A stretch of 40,000 bases of DNA from Patescibacteria group bacterium (GCA_965227835.1 OZ245768.1:719619-759618), one strand, 5' to 3'. Counted from the first letter of the stretch, positions 7,101 to 34,677 are shown. Notes: generated by a model from the sequence alone, not told the origin. A program made the numbers and translations.

Positions 7101-8277
7101 ACCCCAAAGTAAGAAATGAAGTGCAATTAAAAGAGAAGAAAATATAGTATTCCCCGTAGGGTAATAACATTATTTTCTAATATAATAAGATATGTACTGA
7201 CAATTAATATTCCAAGAGAGAGAAAGTATTGAATTTCATTTAAATAAATGATTAAAGAAAAAAGATATAGCATCAATACTAAAAAGATCAGAATCAACAA
7301 TAAGCAGAGAAATATATAGAAACTCAGTAAAAAAACGATGAACCAATAAAAAAATATATCTAGCACTAGAAGCAGAAATGAAATCATATCAAAGACGATG
7401 GCTAACGAAAACTCAATCAATGAAGATAAATATGAATAATGATATGAAAAACTTCATAATAGAACAACTATCAATAACAGAAATACAAATGTCTCCAAAA
7501 ACAATTGCTAAGAAACGGAATAATACTCAAACAGATAAAAAGAAACATATTTCTCATACAAGTATATATTCTTGGCTAGAAACTGGTATGTGAAATAAAT
7601 ATAAAGAACTATTATTATATAAACATAAAGGTTATAGAAAGAAAAAACAACAAACAGAAAGAGTGAAAATTAAAAATAGAGTTAGTATTAAAGATAGACC
7701 TGAAATAATAAACAACAGAGAAGAGAAAGGACATATTGAGGCTGATTTAATTGTTTCTAAAAAATGATTTAAATGAGCTATACTTACATTGGTTGATAGA
7801 AAGACTAGATTACCTAAAATTTTTAAATTAAAAGATAAGTCAAGTGAGAATATAATTAGACTAATAGCTTGAGTTAAAGATGATATATGAATTAAATCTG
7901 TTACTTTTGATAATTGAATGGAATTTGCTAAACATTATTTGTTAAATGATATATGAATAGATACTTACTTTTGTGAACCTTATTCTTCTTGGCAGAAGTG
8001 AAGTGTTGAGAATTTAAATAGGATTATCAGGAGATTTTTTCCTAAATGAACTATATTTGATTATGTAAGTGATGAAAAAATAAAGAGTATTTGCGATATA
8101 TTAGCAAATACTCCTAGAGAAATACTTGGATTTATTTCTCCTAATCAAGCACACTTTTCACAACCTTAGAGTTGTGTTTGGAATTATAACAAAATTTCTT
8201 ATAATCTCAAAAACAAAAAATTTTCTTAATGCTATATTTTCTTCTTTAAGTTCATTTAAAAAATTGCACTTCGGGGT
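7101..8277 (+). mobile_element. IS30-family insertion sequence (~1.18 kb), intact
   Basis: One transposase ORF is flanked by imperfect terminal inverted repeats. The left end is ACCCCAAAGTAAGAAATGAAGTGCAATT...AGAAGAAAATATAG. The reverse complement of the right end (8221-8277) is AAACCCCGAAGTGCAATT...AAGAAGAAAATATAG. Confidence 0.85.
7192..8169 (+). CDS. IS30-family DDE transposase
   Basis: 978 nt = 326 codons with TGA=Gly. The N-terminal HTH-like part is MYGQLIFQERESIEFHLNKGLKKKDIASILKRSESTISREIYRNS. The catalytic part is GHIEADLIVSKKGFKGAILTLVDRKTRL...VTFDNGMEFAKH...[29 protein letters not shown], the classic IS30 D-D-E context. TGA sits at conserved Gly positions (DNG, QKG, PKG). Confidence 0.9.
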
Positions 8278-9044: not shown

Positions 9045-9182
9045 TGATAAAAATAAAGATTTTTTAGGTAATTTTTATGAATAAAATTTTTTGTTTAGCT
9101 ATTCTAAGCCAAAAATTTTTGAATGGAAATCAACAAAAAAGATTATTTTTTCATAGATGTTAATTTTTCAGGGTCTACTTAA

Positions 9183-9683
9183 GATTTAATAGCTAAAAAT
9201 TTAGATAAATGTATAAAGCTAAGAGCTTCTATTGAATGATTAACACTTAATAATATTAGTAGCTTAAATAATAGTGATTTATTTTATTCTATAATAGATT
9301 TAGATGATATTGATGAATTTATAAATTTATCCAAATACTTAAATTTAGTTTGCACAAACGATGAATCATTTATTAAAAATTTAAAAAACCTGTACTTTTT
9401 ATGTTTAGAAAATCCTAAAAAATTACTAGCTAATTTAGTTTACTTAAATGATAATTTGGAAGAAAGTTTGGTTATAAGAGATGTTCCTGAATTAATAAAA
9501 GAATTAAGAAATACTGGAATTATATTTAAAATAAATACAGAAATATTAAAAGAAGTATGAAAGGAATTATGAAAAGAAAACATAAGCTTGGATAAAAATA
9601 GTGGTTTTTACAGAGCTCTGAAAAGAAAATATAAGCTTATACAAAGATCAAATGATTTTAACAGATTTTTAAATACATTATAA
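9183..9683 (+). pseudogene. open frame of 166 codons without any ATG/GTG start; probable 5'-truncated gene remnant
   Basis: The frame opens directly after TAA at 9180-9182 and ends with TAA at 9681-9683. It contains in-frame TGA (IEGL, VGKELGKE), so it is written in the native code. There is no Met anywhere in the frame. It begins right where copy A of the repeated intergenic motif ends. Confidence 0.35.
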
Positions 9684-9824
9684 GATGAAAATAGCTACTT
9701 TTGTTTTAAAAGATTAATAAAAAACTCCTACTTGTTAGAAAATACTAAATTCTAGATAAGAAAAAAGATTTAAAAGAATTATTTATTTTGAAATATAAAA
9801 CAAATAAATTTTATTAAAAAAATT

Positions 9825-9860
9825 AAAACTCCCGAAGTAATTAATTACTTCGGGAGTTTT
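9825..9860. terminator. bidirectional intrinsic terminator (perfect 36-nt palindrome)
   Basis: AAAACTCCCGAAGTAATT|AATTACTTCGGGAGTTTT, with an A-run on one side and a T-run on the other. It lies 18 nt downstream of the pstS-like stop. Confidence 0.8.
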
Positions 9861-9877
9861 TAATGAATCTCCTTATT

Positions 9878-10867
9878 TTAATTTGAAGAAAAAGGACCAT
9901 TTGCAACTCCAAATTCAGGAATTTCACGGTCATCATCAGACAAAGGAATTAATCCCAAATCAGAAAGATATCCATCTTCACCCCAAGTATCTTCATCTGT
10001 AAATTCATCTACATAAAGCCTGATACCAGGTTTTTTATCAATATGATTATTTTTTACATAAAACCATAAAGACCTAGATATAGGATAATTTCCTAGTGCA
10101 ATATTTTCAAAAGAGGGATAAAAGCCATCAATTAAAGCCCCCACTACTTTATCTTCATTTTGAGCTAGAAAAGAATATCCAGCTATACCTAAGAGATTTT
10201 TGTCTGAAGAAAGCTTGTTTATTATGGCATTATCATTTTCACCAGCTTCAATATAAACTCCATCTTCACGAATTTTCAAAGGAACTCCTGATTTATCAGA
10301 AAATTCTTCTAAAACCAATTCTTCAAAAGAATCACGAGTACCCGATGAACTCGGAGGTCCCATAATCTTGATATCAATATCAGGAAGACTTGAATCTATT
10401 TCAGACCATTTCTTATAAGGATTCTCAACAATAATACCATTAATTTTTAGTGTAGAGTTGAGAGCATAAAATAGGTTTTCCCTAGTAAGAGACAAAGGTT
10501 CAAAATCTATGCTATGCATAATAACAATACCATCATATCCTATACGGTATTCTGTTACATCCAAAACCCCATTTTGCTTACATAGAGAAACTTCTTTATT
10601 CTTAATCCTACGGGAAGCATTAGTAATTGAAGGAGTATTTATATCTTGCCCTTGACAAAATAATTTTGCTCCACCACCAGATCCAGTACTCTTCATGCTA
10701 ATAGTTATTTCTGGATACTCATTTTGAACCTCCAAAGCTACGGCAGAAGAATGTGGAAATACAGTTGAAGATCCAACAATTTCAAATTCTTTTATAACTT
10801 CATCCGAAAACAAAAAAGCAGGAAAAGCTAAAGAAAGAAAACAAAAAGTAATTTTGAGTATTTTCAT
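9878..10867 (-). CDS. pstS: phosphate-type ABC transporter substrate-binding protein (PstS/PBP family), secreted; standard-code style gene
   Basis: Uninterrupted 329-aa ORF in the standard-code track. It has an N-terminal signal peptide (MKILKITFCFLSLAFPAFLFS). PstS-family motifs are present: GSSTVFP, STGSGGGAKLF, ITNASRRIK and GYDGIVI. AGGAGG lies 6 nt upstream of the ATG. About 26 Gly codons, none of them TGA. Confidence 0.85.
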   Translation of the reverse strand: MKILKITFCFLSLAFPAFLFSDEVIKEFEIVGSSTVFPHSSAVALEVQNEYPEITISMKSTGSGGGAKLFCQGQDINTPSITNASRRIKNKEVSLCKQNGVLDVTEYRIGYDGIVIMHSIDFEPLSLTRENLFYALNSTLKINGIIVENPYKKWSEIDSSLPDIDIKIMGPPSSSGTRDSFEELVLEEFSDKSGVPLKIREDGVYIEAGENDNAIINKLSSDKNLLGIAGYSFLAQNEDKVVGALIDGFYPSFENIALGNYPISRSLWFYVKNNHIDKKPGIRLYVDEFTDEDTWGEDGYLSDLGLIPLSDDDREIPEFGVANGPFSSN

Positions 10868-11150
10868 AATTTCCTCCTATGTTTAACTCAAAAAAGTGTA
10901 TCATTAACTAAATTAAAAAAGCTAAATCTACACTAACCTATAATCTCTTTCAAATTTAAAGAGCTGTATAGAGATAAAAATAAATACCTCTATATTTTTA
11001 AAATTAATAAATAAAAAATTTTTGTCAAGCCATTTATGATAACAAAAACTTGCTATTTTTCAATAATACATTTTAATAGATTTTACTTTCTATATGAAAG
11101 TATTGTTTTATTGTTCTTTAAAATTATCAAAGAAATTCAAGGAGTTTTTT

Positions 11151-13415
11151 ATGAATATTTCTATAGGTTTGCTCTATATAGCTGGAGCAATTCTAGCAAT
11201 TATAACTTTCTACATTTTTTTCTTATCCCAAGCTAGAGCTAGAAGATATTATTGGTCTTCATACATAAATACCTTAAGTATAAATACAGGTTTTTTTATG
11301 ATGGGCTTTGGACTTATAAGTATCTTGTTACTCTTTTATAATCTGGGAATAGGTAGCTTTAAGTTTTTAAGTGAAATGGGAGTATCAAACATAATATTGG
11401 GAGAAAAATGGAATCCTCCCAAAGCATATACTCCTGGCATAGAAGAAAATTTAGGCTTTCTTCCTCTGGATATGACAACTTTAATGGTTGCATTTATATC
11501 TGGAGGGGTATCTATTTTTATAGGTCGTGCTATAGGAATTGCTACCTCTCAAATGAAAAAAAGAAAGTTTATAATGCTTCTTTTTCTATATATTTTCCTG
11601 ATGATACCCTCTGTAACTTGGGCATTTATGGGATCTATATACCTACAACCTCTTTTGAGATGGTTATTTTTTTTGCAGGATGAAAGAAATATACTTTCAA
11701 CAGCCCTAACAATCGCTGGATTAAATATACCAATTGTTGCTATTTTAACAAATGCAGCAATTTCTGGAATACCAAAGTTTGTATGGGACAATGCAAGAAT
11801 TAACCAAGCAGATCCTGCTACTAGATGGAAGTGGTATTTAAAACCCGAAATAAAATGGCAACTATGGATTACATCTATCGTTGTTATAATGAGGGGAGCC
11901 GCAGAAACTACAATTGCAAGCCGTCTGATGGGAGGAGCTCAAGATTTATTTAGAAATTACTTTTGGGAATGGCCATTTTTAAGTGGAAATACTCTGTCAA
12001 AAGTTGCTTCTGAATATCTTCGTCCAGAATCTCTTGATCATCCTATGGTAGCACCGGGTGGAGCTGATTTTGCACTTCTTAAGATTTTCATAAATATGGG
12101 GATAGTCGTAGTTTTATCTTTGACATTTATCTATATTAGAAAGCTTAAAAATAGCAAAAATACACAAATAGATATACCCAAAAAAACATCTAAGTTTGAA
12201 ATAAATCTGTTTAGTAAATGGATTAAATCATCTTGTTTGCTTGGTATATTTGTGGTTATTTTTGTATTTAGTGCACTGGTTCACAAAGGAGGTCATATGA
12301 TCTTCACTACACAGATAAAATATCAAGGTGTATGTAGTGATTCAGGAGAAATAAAGAGAAAAGACTTAAGGAAATTTTTATCTGAAAAGTTAGGAATTGA
12401 GGAGTTAAGTCGTAAAGAAAAAAGAGAGATTTTAAGGCTATACTCCAAAAGTACGGCTAAGGGTGTGAAGTGCAATAGTGGTGAAGAACTTGATATATGG
12501 TTATCGGCAAGTACACAAACCGATGGTTATGTAAAAGGTTTAAACCCTGTTATGAAAACTTTGTTTGAAAACAGGAGTTTTGGACCAAAATCACCACAAC
12601 ATGGTTGGATAGATACACTTATGCGAAAAGGTTCTGTAAAAAGTTTATCTGATAGAAATTTGGATGATAATTCAAGTCTCATAAGGATTACCTGGAACAA
12701 AACCCTTTTTGAAAACAGAAAATTTTCCAACGATCCTTTTAAAAATGGATTTAGAGCTAATTTTTTGTCATCACTTCAAAATAGCTTTGTGGCTATATTT
12801 GCAATAATATCAGCATTTCTTGGAGCTTTAGTAATTAGGTTTTTCTTGTGGAAAAAAATCAGAGTTCATACATCCATAGTTTTAGCTCTTTCTTTGAGTA
12901 TACCTGCTCTTGGATATGGATATATGGGTAAAATAAACTTTGTTGATATCCTTGGTTTACCTAATGCAGCTAATATTACACTCTATATGACTACTTGGAT
13001 GGTTGTATTTATGATTGCAATAGTAAACTTTACTTCAAGATTACAAGAGATACCTGAGAGTGCTCTTAATACAGGCAGAAGTCATTCTTTTAGGAGAATT
13101 GAAACTATAGTTAAGTATGTGGTTAGCAAGAATTTTAAAAATTTTTGTTTAATTGCTGCCCTTGCTATGACTGCTGGTTTACAGGAAACTTCTCAGTGGT
13201 TCCCTGTAGGTGGACTAGATTTGTCCTTGGGAGAACCTTCTCTTGATTTGTTGGGAGAAGCAAGACCATTGAATGCAATTGCATATAGCTTTAGAGCTTT
13301 TAGTGATCCTGCTTTTGAGGCATTGGAAGCATGCTTACATATTGGGTTAATATTTACCATACTACCATTTGCAACTTTTGCTGCATATTTTGCATATTTA
13401 GAAAATAGGAGGTGA
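11151..13415 (+). CDS. fused PstC/PstA-like ABC permease (754 aa) with a ~160-aa soluble insert between the halves; standard-code style gene
   Basis: The ORF-track frame is 11094-13415. ATG at 11151 is preferred because AAGGAG lies 6 nt upstream. It is a multi-pass membrane protein with two EAA-like permease loops: NARINQADPATRWKWYLKPEIKWQLW...RGAAETT and ESALNTGRSHSFRRIETIVKYV...TAGLQETS. There is no in-frame TGA, and the ORF ends AGG AGG TGA. Confidence 0.8.
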   Translation: MNISIGLLYIAGAILAIITFYIFFLSQARARRYYWSSYINTLSINTGFFMMGFGLISILLLFYNLGIGSFKFLSEMGVSNIILGEKWNPPKAYTPGIEENLGFLPLDMTTLMVAFISGGVSIFIGRAIGIATSQMKKRKFIMLLFLYIFLMIPSVTWAFMGSIYLQPLLRWLFFLQDERNILSTALTIAGLNIPIVAILTNAAISGIPKFVWDNARINQADPATRWKWYLKPEIKWQLWITSIVVIMRGAAETTIASRLMGGAQDLFRNYFWEWPFLSGNTLSKVASEYLRPESLDHPMVAPGGADFALLKIFINMGIVVVLSLTFIYIRKLKNSKNTQIDIPKKTSKFEINLFSKWIKSSCLLGIFVVIFVFSALVHKGGHMIFTTQIKYQGVCSDSGEIKRKDLRKFLSEKLGIEELSRKEKREILRLYSKSTAKGVKCNSGEELDIWLSASTQTDGYVKGLNPVMKTLFENRSFGPKSPQHGWIDTLMRKGSVKSLSDRNLDDNSSLIRITWNKTLFENRKFSNDPFKNGFRANFLSSLQNSFVAIFAIISAFLGALVIRFFLWKKIRVHTSIVLALSLSIPALGYGYMGKINFVDILGLPNAANITLYMTTWMVVFMIAIVNFTSRLQEIPESALNTGRSHSFRRIETIVKYVVSKNFKNFCLIAALAMTAGLQETSQWFPVGGLDLSLGEPSLDLLGEARPLNAIAYSFRAFSDPAFEALEACLHIGLIFTILPFATFAAYFAYLENRR

Positions 13416-13420
13416 AACTA

Positions 13421-13456
13421 AAAGAGAACCATCAAGTTTGATGGTTCTCTTTTTTA
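13421..13456 (+). terminator. intrinsic terminator after the permease
   Basis: AGAGAACCATC-AAGTTT-GATGGTTCTCT followed by TTTTT. Confidence 0.8.
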
Positions 13457-16312: not shown

Positions 16313-16350
16313 AAAAAAAGAGCCCTTTCATATAAATATGAAAGGGCTCT
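16313..16350 (-). terminator. intrinsic terminator (12-bp stem) on the minus strand
   Basis: The minus strand reads AGCCCTTTCATA-TTTA-TATGAAAGGGCT followed by seven T. Confidence 0.8.
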
Positions 16351-19065: not shown

Positions 19066-19737
19066 TTCAACACATCGGGATAAAAACCCCTATCTTTAGA
19101 TAGTTAAGACACCGAAGGTGTAAGTGATAGAAATTGAATAAATGAGATGTGTTGTGACATAGGGTTTTAAACCCCGTTGCCTTCAGGCCGATTCTAAAGA
19201 AAAAAGTGTAAAAAATCAATAGAATAAATAAAATAGTGTTAAAAACTAACACTAGAGAGAATGAAATACCAAAAAAGTAGTCATGCGACATATGATGTCA
19301 GATACCATATAGTATGGATAACAAAATACAGAAATCCATTCATGAAAAAGAGATACAAGATAGATTGGAAAAGATCATAAGATGAATAAGTAAAAAGCTA
19401 TGAGTAATAATAATAAAGATATGAATGGAAGAAGATCATGTACATATGTATTGTAGGATACCGTTAACTAAACCAATATCTACAATAGTATGACATATAA
19501 AGTGAGAAAGTTCTAAGGCAATAAAGAGGTATTTTTACAAAGAAATTAAGAGATGGTATTGGAAGACATGAAATATATGGTGAGTATGATATTTTGTATC
19601 TAGTGTATGAGAGATAAATTGAGAAATAATATCTAATTATGTGGAACAACAGTGAGAAGAAGAGAATAAGATTGAAGAGATAGAGCTTTAAATTTCAGTA
19701 CAAATAAAAGCCCCGTGCCTTCAGGCCGGGGTAGAAG
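19066..19737 (+). mobile_element. IS200/IS605-family element (tnpA only)
   Basis: A Y1/HUH transposase gene is flanked by subterminal hairpins. The left ones are GGGTTTTAAACCCC and GCCTTCAGGC at 19163-19190. The right one is GCCCCGTGCCTTCAGGCCGGGG at 19708-19731. There are no inverted terminal repeats, as expected for this family. The boundaries are approximate. Confidence 0.75.
19261..19691 (+). pseudogene. tnpA: IS200-type TnpA (HUH/Y1 transposase) with a single frameshift
   Basis: Frame 1 reads MKYQKSSHATYDVRYHIVWITKYRNPFMKK and then stops at 19378-19380. Shifting one base at the A-run ATGAAAAAG (about 19342-19350) gives EIQDRLEKIIRGISKKLGVIIIKIGMEEDHVHMYCRIPLTKPISTIVGHIKGESSKAIKRYF...RWYWKTGNIWGVGYFVSSVGEINGEIISNYVEQQ. 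This carries the HxH and catalytic Tyr motifs, with TGA=Gly. Confidence 0.8.
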
Positions 19738-31898: not shown

Positions 31899-31945
31899 TT
31901 TTTATGAAATTAGAAAAGAGGCAACCTACGGCTGCCTCTTTGAAA

Positions 31946-32619
31946 TCACTCCTTATTTGATTGTCCTTCATACAAGTTAAGTCCTATCATTGCTACCAAA
32001 GCAAGAAAAAGTTGAGGCAAAATAACATATGGAATACCATATGGAACTAAAAATATAATATGTATGGGAATTACATATAATAGTATCAGTTCAGGCTTAC
32101 TATCAACAAATACTTGCTTAAATCCATCAAGTTTATATGTAAATAACGTTGTTACTATTAAGGAAATTAAAGCAATTAAAAAGATATAATATAGAAAATC
32201 AGTTAAACCAAAGATAATACCAAAGAAAAAACCAAAAAATAAAGATGAAAAGATATTAAAAAAAGAGAGATAAATATAATTCCAACTGTTTGAAAAATTC
32301 TGTGACTACCACTTTCATAAAAATCCCCTTTTTCGCTCTTTTTTCGATATTTTCCTAGGTATTCTATATATTTGTATCTATACAATATAATTGCCTCAAA
32401 TAATGTTGATATTGCAATCATAATATTAATAGTAAACAACATATCCTTGCTTCCTTGAAAGTATTCTTCAATTTCTTGTGAATATACTATCCAAGCTGAC
32501 ATAATTATCAGTAACGACGGTGCTAGTTTTTGATAAAAACGATAATTAAAAAATACATTTTTACCAAAGAAATGACACAACTTTAAGGGCATGTCATATA
32601 AGCTTTGTTTAATATTCAT
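31946..32619 (-). pseudogene. cassette copy 1: membrane-protein paralog split by a stop and frameshift (138-aa N-part plus ~85-aa C-part)
   Basis: ORF 32203-32619 (MNIKQSLYDMPLKLCHFFGKNVFFNYRFYQKLAPSLL...) ends at TAA. The C-terminal homology continues in another frame (...LILLYVIPIHIIFLVPYGIPYVILPQLFLALVAMIGLNLYEGQSNKE) to TGA at 31946-31948. Confidence 0.75.
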
Positions 32620-32663
32620 TTTTTCCTCCTTTTAAAACAATTGAAAAGAATAAAAACAAAAAT

Positions 32664-32691
32664 ATTATAATAAATTTTATTTAAAAGTCAA
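32664..32691 (-). promoter_or_regulatory. sigma-70-like promoter of cassette copy 1 (TTGACT-16 nt-TATAAT on the minus strand)
   Basis: The -35 is at 32691-32686 and the -10 at 32669-32664, about 45 nt upstream of the AGGAGG-led ATG at 32619. Confidence 0.55.
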
Positions 32692-32827
32692 TAAAAAATG
32701 GTAGAGTCTATCACGAAATGTAACCTTTAGAAGATATGATATACTCTAAAAGATATAATTAAATTTTTGTGATATGAAATACTGAATTTTATTAAAAAAC
32801 AGGCAGCCTACGGCTGCCTGTTTGAAA

Positions 32828-33445
32828 TCACTCCTTATTTTGTCCTTCATACAAGTTAAATCCTATCATTACTACCAAAGCAAGAAAAAGTTGAGGAAGA
32901 AAAGCATAGAAAGTACCATATGGAGCTAAGGGTATAAATGGAAATAAGGATATAATATGTATACATATAATAGTATCAGTTCAACCTTGTTATAAATCAA
33001 TTTACTCTTATACACCATGTTTGATGTACATAATTTAGTAATCATTTACGAAACTTAATATAAATCCATCTAAATATGAGTCAAAAATATGATAATGTGA
33101 TATTATAAGGAATAACATAGAAAGAGTTAATATGATTGAAACAAGGAAATTATGAAAAATGGAAATAATAATAATAATAAGTGATTATAAAATACCAAGT
33201 GGAATAACACCAATTAAGAATCCAAAACCACCAAAATAAGAGAAATAAATATGAAATGTTTCAAATTTATAAGCTCCACTATCATAATAAATAGTTTACC
33301 AGGTATTCTATATAGTTGTATCTATACAGTATACCTGCCTGAACTAATGTTAGTATTGCAATAATGGTAATGTTAAAGAATTTAAATCTCCAACCTGAAA
33401 GTGAATATACTATCCAAGCTGTCATAATTATCAGTACCGGTGCAG
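32828..33445 (-). pseudogene. cassette copy 2: heavily degraded paralog lacking N-terminus, SD and promoter
   Basis: Nucleotide similarity to copies 1 and 3 is visible at the 3' end (32828-32990) and at CCAAGCTGTCATAATTATCAGTACCGGTGCAG (33411-33442, compare 32491-32524). There are multiple stops in all frames. Confidence 0.7.
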
Positions 33446-33852
33446 TTTTTTGTATTTTATATTTTATTTTTTACCTTTATATAAGTAAAAATCAGTAGAT
33501 TTTATATTGATTGAATTTTATAAAGATAAAGTTAGCTTAAATAAGTCATTTATAGAAATACCTACAATACATATGTACATGATCTTCTTCCATTCATATC
33601 TTTATTATTATTAAAGATAAAACATTAAAAATAGCTTAATATGTCCTACTTTATTTCAAAGTAAAATATAGGTCATACAATTTTTCACTTATAAAAAGTG
33701 GGTTTTTATAGTTTTGAGAAAATGGATAGAATCTATAACGAAATGCAACTTTTAGAAGACATGATATACTCTAAAAGATATAATTAAATTTTTGTGATAT
33801 GAAAATATGAATTTTATTAAAAAATAGGCAGCCTACGGCTGCCTATTTGATG

Positions 33853-34542
33853 TCACTCCTTGTTTATATTTATTTGTTTATTATTCCTATATAACTTAAT
33901 ACCTATAACTATTATCAGAAAAGTAAAAGCATATAAAAATATATAAGGAACAAAAGTTTGGATAAAGCCATATGTCGCTATTAATAAAAGTTTTACAGGA
34001 ATTATATATAGTAGCAATAATTCCATTTTGTTATTTAAATCAATCCCAAGATCAAAAATCGGATCTTTCATTGTAATTAAAATTAACTTCACAATTACCA
34101 AAGATAATGTAATACCAATTATCAGTGCTCCAATATAAGAACCACGGGTAAGAAAAAAAGCCATAAAACCTAAAACGACACCCCAAGAAACAGAACAAAG
34201 TATGATTGAACTTATACCTAGAAGTTTTAAGTATTTATTTTCAAAGGATTCTTCACCTTCTTTTATATAGTCTCCTAGATACTTTATATAATTAAATCGG
34301 TACAATATCGCTATTTCAATCAATGTAAGTGTAATAATAATTGTATTAATTACTAAACTAACAATTTCATTTTGAAAACCTTGCCCAATTTCCTGCATAA
34401 TCAACACATAAACTAACATAATCAATTGTAAGGATGGCACCAACTTTCCATAAAAATTATAGCTAAAAACTATATTTTTACTAGAAGAATGACATAACTC
34501 TGGAGTTATATCATAATCATATAAGTTTTGTTTAATATTCAT
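33853..34542 (-). CDS. cassette copy 3: intact 229-aa polytopic membrane protein of unknown function; standard-code style gene
   Basis: Uninterrupted ORF in the standard-code track. AGGAGG lies 7 nt upstream. The N-terminus MNIKQNLYDYDITPELCHSSSKNIVFSYNFYGKLVPSL is paralogous to copy 1. The ORF ends AAG GAG TGA and is followed by the hairpin terminator. Confidence 0.8.
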   Translation of the reverse strand: MNIKQNLYDYDITPELCHSSSKNIVFSYNFYGKLVPSLQLIMLVYVLIMQEIGQGFQNEIVSLVINTIIITLTLIEIAILYRFNYIKYLGDYIKEGEESFENKYLKLLGISSIILCSVSWGVVLGFMAFFLTRGSYIGALIIGITLSLVIVKLILITMKDPIFDLGIDLNNKMELLLLYIIPVKLLLIATYGFIQTFVPYIFLYAFTFLIIVIGIKLYRNNKQININKE

Positions 34543-34677
34543 TTTTACCTCCTTTTAAAATAATTGAAAAGAATAAAAACATATTTATTATAATAAGTTT
34601 TACTCGTAACGCAACAAAAATAGTTGAAGAAAATTCAACTATTTTTATTTTATTAAAATATATAAAGTTATTAATAG

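Follow-up and report, generated by a model that had tools for sequence, protein, structure and literature searches.

The window analysed here, a 40,000-nucleotide stretch of DNA from a Patescibacteria group bacterium (GCA_965227835.1 OZ245768.1:719619-759618), contains a locus that we read as a putative phosphate importer: a pstS-like gene, a divergently oriented gene for a fused PstC/PstA-like permease and, convergent with the latter, a gene for an ATP-binding cassette (ABC) ATPase. Interpreted with genetic code 25, in which TGA encodes glycine, the window is a segment of a low-GC bacterial chromosome with rpoC, rpoB, insertion sequence (IS) elements, ftsE, a CitMHS transporter gene and mscS. 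The pstS and permease genes, together referred to as the island, contain no in-frame TGA. The features of the locus are listed below, with Shine-Dalgarno (SD) strengths given as the free energy (ΔG) of the duplex with the anti-SD sequence.

9825-9860, minus strand: intrinsic terminator after pstS; 16-bp stem and T-run, fold -23.2 kcal/mol, z-score -8.0
9878-10867, minus strand: gene for a pstS-like phosphate-binding protein; 329 aa, stop TAA, N-terminal signal-peptide-like segment
10868-11150 (283 bp), no strand assigned: divergent control region with TTGACA at 11028-11023 (minus strand), both SD sites and promoter-like matches
10873-10878, minus strand: SD site AGGAGG, 5 nt before the pstS ATG; ΔG -10.2 kcal/mol
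11139-11144, plus strand: SD site AAGGAG, 6 nt before the permease ATG; ΔG -7.8 kcal/mol
11151-13415, plus strand: gene for a fused PstC/PstA-like double-transmembrane-domain ABC importer permease; 754 codons (11151-13412), then TGA at 13413-13415
13420-13454, plus strand: intrinsic terminator after the permease gene; 15-bp stem and T-run, fold -20.7 kcal/mol, z-score -6.0, conserved in the related contig L003
13544-14614, minus strand: gene for an ABC ATPase, the presumed energising subunit; native-coded with 23 TGA, without an SD site, convergent with the permease gene

Across 21 native genes of the window (9,073 codons, read in code 25), TGA accounts for 421 of 630 glycine codons (67%), with rpoB alone containing 60, and the resulting density of about one per 21.6 codons agrees with the spacing of 15-30 codons claimed in the original prediction for this locus. 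GGA makes up only 7% of native glycine codons, though A-ending codons are otherwise favoured in the window, a shortage that looks like the specific replacement of GGA by TGA; tryptophan (TGG) has a share of 0.4% of native codons versus 1.9% in the two island genes. In the island, none of the 77 glycine codons is TGA (0 of 26 in pstS, 0 of 51 in the permease gene), just as that prediction had stated, and glycine codon usage differs between island and native genes with a chi-square p of 7e-39. The island has a GC content of 0.32-0.33 versus ~0.25 in the flanks, and composition and coding signals shift sharply at its borders, which could speak for an assembly chimera or for contamination by standard-code DNA. 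No open reading frame (ORF) of at least 100 codons other than pstS, the permease gene and the ATPase gene is found between 9.0 and 14.6 kb, and neither a tRNA nor an Rfam family was found within the window.

Products of the locus

The predicted product of pstS is a divergent member of the PstS family. Residues 24-292 match Pfam PBP_like_2 (PF12849) with 115.8 bits against a cut-off of 27, and the match to NCBIfam TIGR02136 (138.9 bits, E = 2e-40) falls under the curated cut-off of 206.6. The segments GSSTVFP, STGSGGG, NASR and SSGTRD, which may hold the phosphate-contact residues, are invariant across the three code-25 PstS proteins compared below. Neither island protein matches any PHROG family, and there are no phage hallmark genes in the region.

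Residues 47-211 of the permease match the PstC model TIGR02138 (E = 3e-13; 49.4 bits, under the cut-off of 196), and residues 363-463 give a faint match to DUF3333, a domain found at the N-terminus of long PstA proteins; Pfam BPD_transp_1 gives no match on the protein even at E up to 10. An AlphaFold2 model, built from an alignment without the orthologue from the BBAY72 sample (below), reaches a predicted local distance difference test score (pLDDT) of 71 and a predicted template-modelling score of 0.73, and contains a linker domain of ~100 residues with pLDDT <50 over 434-532. Foldseek aligns the whole model best with the fused permease FbpB (9j4r_A; E = 4e-6, 713 aligned columns) and each half with chains A and B of the E. 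coli PstSCAB permease at target template-modelling scores of 0.70-0.76; these chains are the best single-domain fold matches, and the fold is that of a type-I ABC importer transmembrane domain. We read the protein as a predicted single-chain PstC-PstA-type permease because the PstC and DUF3333 matches coincide with fold matches to both FbpB and PstSCAB.

Under code 25 the TGA that follows codon 754 would be read as Gly, followed by Asn and a TAA stop at 13419-13421, and the database copy of 756 aa agrees with this read-through. The 3' end of the gene is AGGAGGTGAAACTAA in the window and AGGAGGTAAAAATAA in the near-identical L003, and the BBAY72 copy also closes with TAA. By this comparison the terminal TGA most likely arose from TAA within the lineage of the window, lengthening the protein by Gly-Asn. 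The original prediction had taken it as a sign of the donor's code, but a relic donor stop is ruled out by the TAA that ends both the L003 and the BBAY72 copies.

The ATPase matches Pfam ABC_tran; its top NCBIfam model is PstB (TIGR00972) with 109 bits versus a cut-off of 343, followed by GlnQ with 104 bits, and it is 23% identical to alphaproteobacterial PstB. Among ~5.8 billion proteins it has only two close homologues, both on code-25 contigs. It probably represents a lineage-specific native nucleotide-binding subunit rather than a co-imported PstB. The protein carries an insert of ~100 residues after the Walker A motif and before the Q-loop, and a frameshift or faulty assembly divides its gene in L003 into two ORFs.

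Conservation of the locus and exclusion of in-frame TGA

Two relatives of the locus, L003 and L004, were fetched as the contigs of the two close ATPase homologues. L003 (ENA assembly) is collinear with the window from 12.3 to 24.3 kb at 93-98% DNA identity and holds the last 360 permease codons (98.6% identity, 0 TGA among 22 glycine codons), with the ATPase gene adjoining in the same convergent orientation. L004 belongs, with L006, to JGI sample 3300001202, 'BBAY72', a distant code-25 lineage in which the locus was rebuilt from two end-overlapping contigs: a TGA-rich ATPase gene (15 TGA) is convergent with the permease gene, which is divergent from pstS, so that order and orientation are as in the window. 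Here too the island lacks TGA, with 0 among 92 glycine codons (62 in the permease gene, 30 in pstS), against ~27% of glycine codons in the native BBAY72 genes. A third relative, L009 (Logan assembly), has pstS with 0 TGA among 35 glycine codons, beside AT-rich DNA with a TGA-containing convergent ORF. The flanking genes on the relatives' contigs carry in-frame TGA at conserved glycine positions, and a neighbour-joining tree places the three code-25 PstS proteins in one long-branched clade. The genes downstream of pstS in L006 and L009 differ from those of the window and have no counterpart there.

These contigs bear directly on whether the island was joined to its surroundings by an assembly error. 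Such a chimera is very unlikely, because independent assemblies reproduce the ATPase-permease junction (L003 and L004) and the L009 pstS gene stands beside TGA-containing DNA. L003 is collinear across the junction itself at 93% DNA identity, the third-position composition of the island is host-like, and in all three assemblies (ENA, JGI and Logan) island genes lie next to TGA-rich DNA; we regard chimerism or contamination as an explanation of negligible probability.

The window and BBAY72 copies have been diverging for a long time. PstS is 59.1% identical between them at the amino-acid level, the permease 65.9% and the native ATPase 65.8%, and the same codon is used at 49%, 44% and 54% of conserved residues, respectively, where saturation would give 39%, 39% and 47%. 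Since codon identity is near saturation and the amino-acid identities are alike, we conclude that all three genes share a similarly long divergence. The codon switches between the two lineages at conserved sites are as follows.

ATPase Gly, TGA/GGN switches: 13/28
Island Arg, AGR/CGN switches (same transversion class as GGA/TGA): 12/24
Island Leu, TTR/CTN switches: 33/81
Island Gly, GGN-to-other-GGN switches: 38/69
Island Gly, TGA/GGN switches: 0/69

At the switching rate of the ATPase, the probability of finding none in 69 is 0.54^69, or ~3e-19. TGA is likewise absent from all 31 lineage-specific glycine codons of the island. The synonymous changes that did occur follow the composition of the host, with the AT-rich form in the AT-richer window lineage at all 12 arginine switches and at 28 of the 33 leucine switches, and for 13 of 18 amino acids the window's island chooses its codons as native genes do, the exceptions being Gly, Arg, Leu, Lys and Ile. 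In the other reading frames TGA is not avoided: the two island genes contain 71 off-frame TGA, at 19 and 46 per 1,000 codons compared with 14 and 50 in native genes. The exclusion of TGA is therefore frame-specific.

One could hold that no selection is involved, and that slow amelioration at first codon positions, base composition or chance has kept TGA out. Conversion of GGN to TGA requires a first-position transversion, and the deviant amino acids Arg, Leu and Gly all involve first positions. The TGA-free state is nevertheless not compositional, because off-frame TGA occurs at normal frequency, as often as in native genes, and first-position arginine and leucine switches are common in the very same genes: AGR/CGN pairs switch at 50% and TTR/CTN pairs at 41% of sites where glycine gives none, while TGA/GGN switching runs at 46% in the ATPase gene. 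We give this explanation hardly any weight. By these comparisons the island genes evolved as if in-frame TGA were forbidden, which points to frame-specific purifying selection: synonymous sites drifted hostward while in-frame TGA stayed excluded, and this combination argues for selection acting on the reading frame. A broader avoidance of codons whose tRNAs carry a modified wobble U (AGA, AAA, TTA, ATA and TGA) was considered and dropped, as the BBAY72 deviations amount to a general enrichment of C-ending codons, and glutamate and glutamine do not fit.

Between the window and L003, synonymous divergence forms a mosaic, at 0.3-2% for 19.9-24.3 kb, 10-13% for 14.9-18.4 kb and 5% in the permease gene, a pattern that suggests recombination among strains.

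Expression signals and ancestry of the island genes

Both island genes are preceded by strong SD sites, AGGAGG and AAGGAG, at the places where the original prediction had put them. The anti-SD ΔG at 20 native starts ranges from -6.4 to +2.0 kcal/mol, with 19 of the 20 at -1.5 or weaker and one at -6.4. The same prediction had seen no such site before any native gene of the window, and the native starts agree. Two further TGA-free genes, at 32203-32619 and 33853-34542, carry still stronger SD sites, so that SD sites are not peculiar to the island: a strong one stands before all four TGA-free genes of the window and before none of the 20 native ones. In the relatives, pstS likewise follows an SD-like site (ΔG -6.7 in L006, -6.2 in L009), and the BBAY72 permease gene has CAAGGA at the same spacing from its ATG as in the window; no SD site was found at any of six native BBAY72 starts. 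Gracilibacteria often lack ribosomal protein bS21, and the anti-SD sequence is generally kept outside a Parcubacteria subgroup (PMC9297842).

In the spacer between pstS and the permease gene, TTGAC(A), ATATAGAG and the CAAGGA SD are kept between the window and BBAY72, the remainder having diverged. The pstS-proximal spacers of L006 (994-1266) and L009 (82-190) each contain two direct GGGCTC motifs, and the window spacer contains none; from their sequence, the GGGCTC motifs, TTGAC(A) and ATATAGAG may be regulator sites. The hairpin terminators had also been proposed to mark the island. Both do fold far better than shuffled sequences, but GC-rich hairpin terminators follow native genes too, as at 16319-16350 after the CitMHS gene.

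The nearest neighbours of PstS, at 54-60% identity, are a cluster of proteins from alphaproteobacterial metagenome-assembled genomes (MAGs) and marine phages. The cluster includes L001, an alphaproteobacterial MAG contig of GC 0.60 with a canonical pstS/pstC-pstA-pstB locus, and L002, a phage-like contig. Among GTDB species representatives the best matches are MAGs of Alphaproteobacteria/Rhodospirillaceae at 60%, followed by Halomonas, Marinobacter, Maricaulis and relatives at 45-53%; Pelagibacter phage PstS is 44% identical.

The permease has far fewer relatives. In a word-indexed search of ~5.8 billion proteins the permease matched nothing but itself, and HMMER over 1.84 billion cluster representatives gave one real relative, the 145-aa fragment P0122, the other matches being generic ABC permeases at ~20% identity. 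P0122 is the sole relative outside the code-25 lineages; it lies on a contig of GC 0.50 filed as Chloroflexota whose flanks are called standard-code, and its gene ends with TGA. Its identity to each code-25 permease is 51%, whereas in that region the code-25 copies reach 79% among themselves. Alignment searches of genome, metagenome and viral contigs found no relatives of the permease, the source genome and BBAY72 apparently lying outside those collections. The fused permeases P0123 and P0129 (~20% identity) come from unrelated standard-code contexts and were set aside as uninformative.

Taken together, a foreign, standard-code ancestry of the island genes is supported, because PstS has alphaproteobacterial and phage neighbours, the permease has its outgroup on a standard-code contig, and native genes lack the SD sites. 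To this extent the transfer reading of the original prediction stands, but its description of the transfer as recent and un-ameliorated, from a low-GC standard-code donor, is not supported. That description is in line with the absence of in-frame TGA, the presence of SD sites, a GC content slightly above the flanks and an IS30-family transposase gene 1.7 kb away:

7192-8169, plus strand: native-coded IS30-family transposase (12 TGA), at a distance of 1.7 kb from the pstS terminator

The 780 bp at 9045-9824, between this gene and the pstS terminator, are without an ORF of at least 100 codons. A recent date is contradicted by other code-25 genomes: their orthologues, identically placed, are likewise TGA-free, an outcome that the original prediction had itself counted against its scenario, and have diverged as far as the native ATPase (59-66% identity), with synonymous sites near saturation. 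The native-like usage for 13 of 18 amino acids does not support an un-ameliorated state, the closest relatives outside code 25 are merely 51-60% identical, and the terminal TGA is lineage-specific. A single recent import is accordingly quite improbable, although a little less so than the absence of selection.

Elsewhere in the window, a second TGA-free island has the look of a decaying standard-code import of younger date.

31909-34620, minus strand: three tandem cassettes encoding an orphan multi-pass membrane protein, 0.9-1.0 kb each, no in-frame TGA

Each cassette has a strong AAAGGAGG SD and an AAGGAG-TGA end directly before a GC hairpin and T-run. Of the three copies, only that at 34542-33853 is intact, decay or frameshifts having affected the others. 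With code 25, translation would pass the cassette TGA and run 12 codons further, into the terminator, and non-stop transcripts might result. Searches of Pfam, PHROGs, plasmids and metagenome contigs gave no homologue of the cassette protein. The array shows that standard-code DNA does reach this genome, and against it the maintained pst genes stand out the more. Within the array, a fragment at ~33559-33594 (minus strand) encodes MEEDHVHMYCR, like the IS200-type TnpA at 19314-19691 (plus strand), and the adjacent window positions 33443-33557 recur at a different position in L003 (7393-7505) at 95% identity.

Proposed history and relation to known systems

We consider it probable, with some reserve, that the island results from a single old acquisition followed by vertical descent beside the native ATPase gene, with selection against TGA and retention of the SD sites, giving a phosphate ABC importer assembled from parts of mixed history. 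The locus would encode a high-affinity importer comprising a secreted PstS-type protein, a single-chain permease and a native-coded ATPase. PstS and the permease would be xenologues taken up once from standard-code organisms by the ancestor of a code-25 clade, PstS from a marine alphaproteobacterial or phage type and the permease from a rare family otherwise found on one standard-code contig. Transcription would start from the 283-bp divergent control region, presumably of sigma-70 type, translation would initiate at SD sites that native genes do not use, and an intrinsic terminator would close each gene. After acquisition the genes would have been inherited vertically, drifting at synonymous sites toward host composition with in-frame TGA excluded throughout. 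The reason we prefer, as a hypothesis, is that TGA is excluded so that the mRNAs stay translatable when UGA-to-Gly decoding is limiting or off, the outcome of which would be a small, codon-gated and SD-led expression class.

Several points weigh against this history. The pairing of permease and ATPase is suggested by their conserved adjacency only. Only three or four code-25 lineages are sampled, all as short contigs, and the BBAY72 contigs are joined by an end overlap of 12-14 bp. Evidence for conditional UGA decoding, whether from a tRNA, a release factor or a toxin, is absent from the window. Native membrane proteins and large housekeeping genes tolerate TGA; a general cost of UGA decoding therefore fails as a cause, and any selective reason must be specific to the island genes. 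Finally, third-position GC content is higher in the island than in native genes (0.16-0.23 versus ~0.13 in the window, 0.36-0.41 versus 0.20-0.31 in BBAY72) and PstS is without AGA in all three lineages, which could reflect younger, repeated imports.

That last possibility would place the cassette mainly in standard-code carriers (TGA-free broad-host-range phages, hosts or prey), from which code-25 cells acquired or refreshed it separately and fairly recently. The absence of TGA, the SD sites, the higher GC and a preference for CGN would then be donor signatures, with no need for selection in the recoded cell. PstS is a common auxiliary gene of marine phages, found here in 24 viral contigs with the best match, at 59%, on a standard-code phage contig, and TGA-free, 'code-11-compatible' phages are predicted to infect Gracilibacteria and Absconditabacteria, although Liu et al. 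(2023, PMC10746230), who describe them, report integrated prophages to be TGA-dense without exception. The elevated third-position GC and CGN preference in every lineage, the missing AGA and the apparently younger import in the same window fit this view as well. Yet searches of ~5.8 and 1.8 billion proteins yield no donor above 60% for PstS or 51%, over part of its length, for the permease, which is also absent from viral contigs. The code-25 copies are each other's closest relatives, their divergence equals that of the ATPase, and the junction with the native ATPase gene is identical in both lineages where it was recovered. Arginine and leucine switches toward AT in the AT-richer host are as expected of change inside the host, and homologous replacement of a resident copy is implausible at 60-66% protein identity. 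We regard repeated import as unlikely, though it deserves more weight than a recent single transfer.

A wider proposal, which we offer as speculation, is doubtful but of slightly better standing than repeated import: bacteria that read TGA as glycine may keep a small, conserved set of UGA-free, SD-led genes that remain translatable when UGA decoding is withdrawn, as might happen through depletion or cleavage of tRNA-Gly(UCA) upon starvation, toxin activation or phage attack. If true, recoding would have enabled a codon-gated emergency expression programme, with phosphate scavenging as one output.

Stop-codon reassignment is usually seen as a one-way filter on gene flow, with imports expected to blend into the new code. 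The original prediction overstated the surprise of crossing that barrier, as 126 horizontally acquired genes are already known in Vampirococcus, which uses code 25 (PMC8080830). What is known, then, is that a recoded genome can hold horizontally acquired genes; what is new is the long-term exclusion of the reassigned codon, and in the literature searched we found no report that code-25 lineages conserve cellular genes of this kind, chromosomal, TGA-free and SD-led. Either a recoded cell separates a class of mRNAs by decoding and initiation, a new regulatory layer in uncultivated episymbionts, or sampling greatly understates how often genes cross the code boundary. In code-25 assemblies such genes can be recognised by the absence of TGA together with an SD site, and they should not be discarded as contamination during bin curation.

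Like E. coli PstSCAB, known from cryo-EM (9k3s, 9k3x, 9k3y), the locus combines an ABC ATPase with a periplasmic phosphate-binding protein and two transmembrane domains of type-I importers, but it fuses both of these domains in a 754-aa chain at 13-17% identity. Its ATPase is not a recognisable PstB equivalog, has an insert and is convergently encoded, and there is no phoU in the locus. The closest counterparts of its PstS, at 44-60% identity, are marine proteobacterial and phage proteins (Rhodospirillaceae, Halomonas and Thalassospira types; Pelagibacter phage and viral contigs), and the alphaproteobacterial contig L001 shares the divergent pstS/pstC arrangement. The marine bacterial loci, unlike the window, have separate long PstC (DUF3708) and PstA (DUF3333) proteins with almost no similarity to the fused permease (E = 5e-4), together with a canonical PstB, and phage pstS copies stand alone, without a permease, whereas pstS of the window is paired with one.

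The TGA-free phages (PMC10746230) resemble the island in having genes tied to code-25 hosts without in-frame TGA, readable in either code. They differ in that the island consists of cellular transporter genes whose chromosomal position is conserved, which have no phage genes in their vicinity and which have stayed TGA-free through saturating divergence. FbpB of the Thermus thermophilus FbpBC transporter (9j4r_A) is, like the permease, a single polypeptide with both type-I importer transmembrane domains; it is 13% identical and serves another substrate family, and the binding protein here is of PstS type, not FbpA type.

Codon-gated expression itself has precedents in the bldA tRNA-Leu(UUA)/TTA system of Streptomyces and in MazF-mt9, which cleaves tRNA-Lys(UUU) in M. 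tuberculosis. In these systems, whether or not an mRNA contains one codon decides its translation when one tRNA is scarce, a functional likeness that extends only to the reason we favour for the exclusion of TGA. Here the gated codon would be the commonest glycine codon of the genome, and the exempt class tiny.

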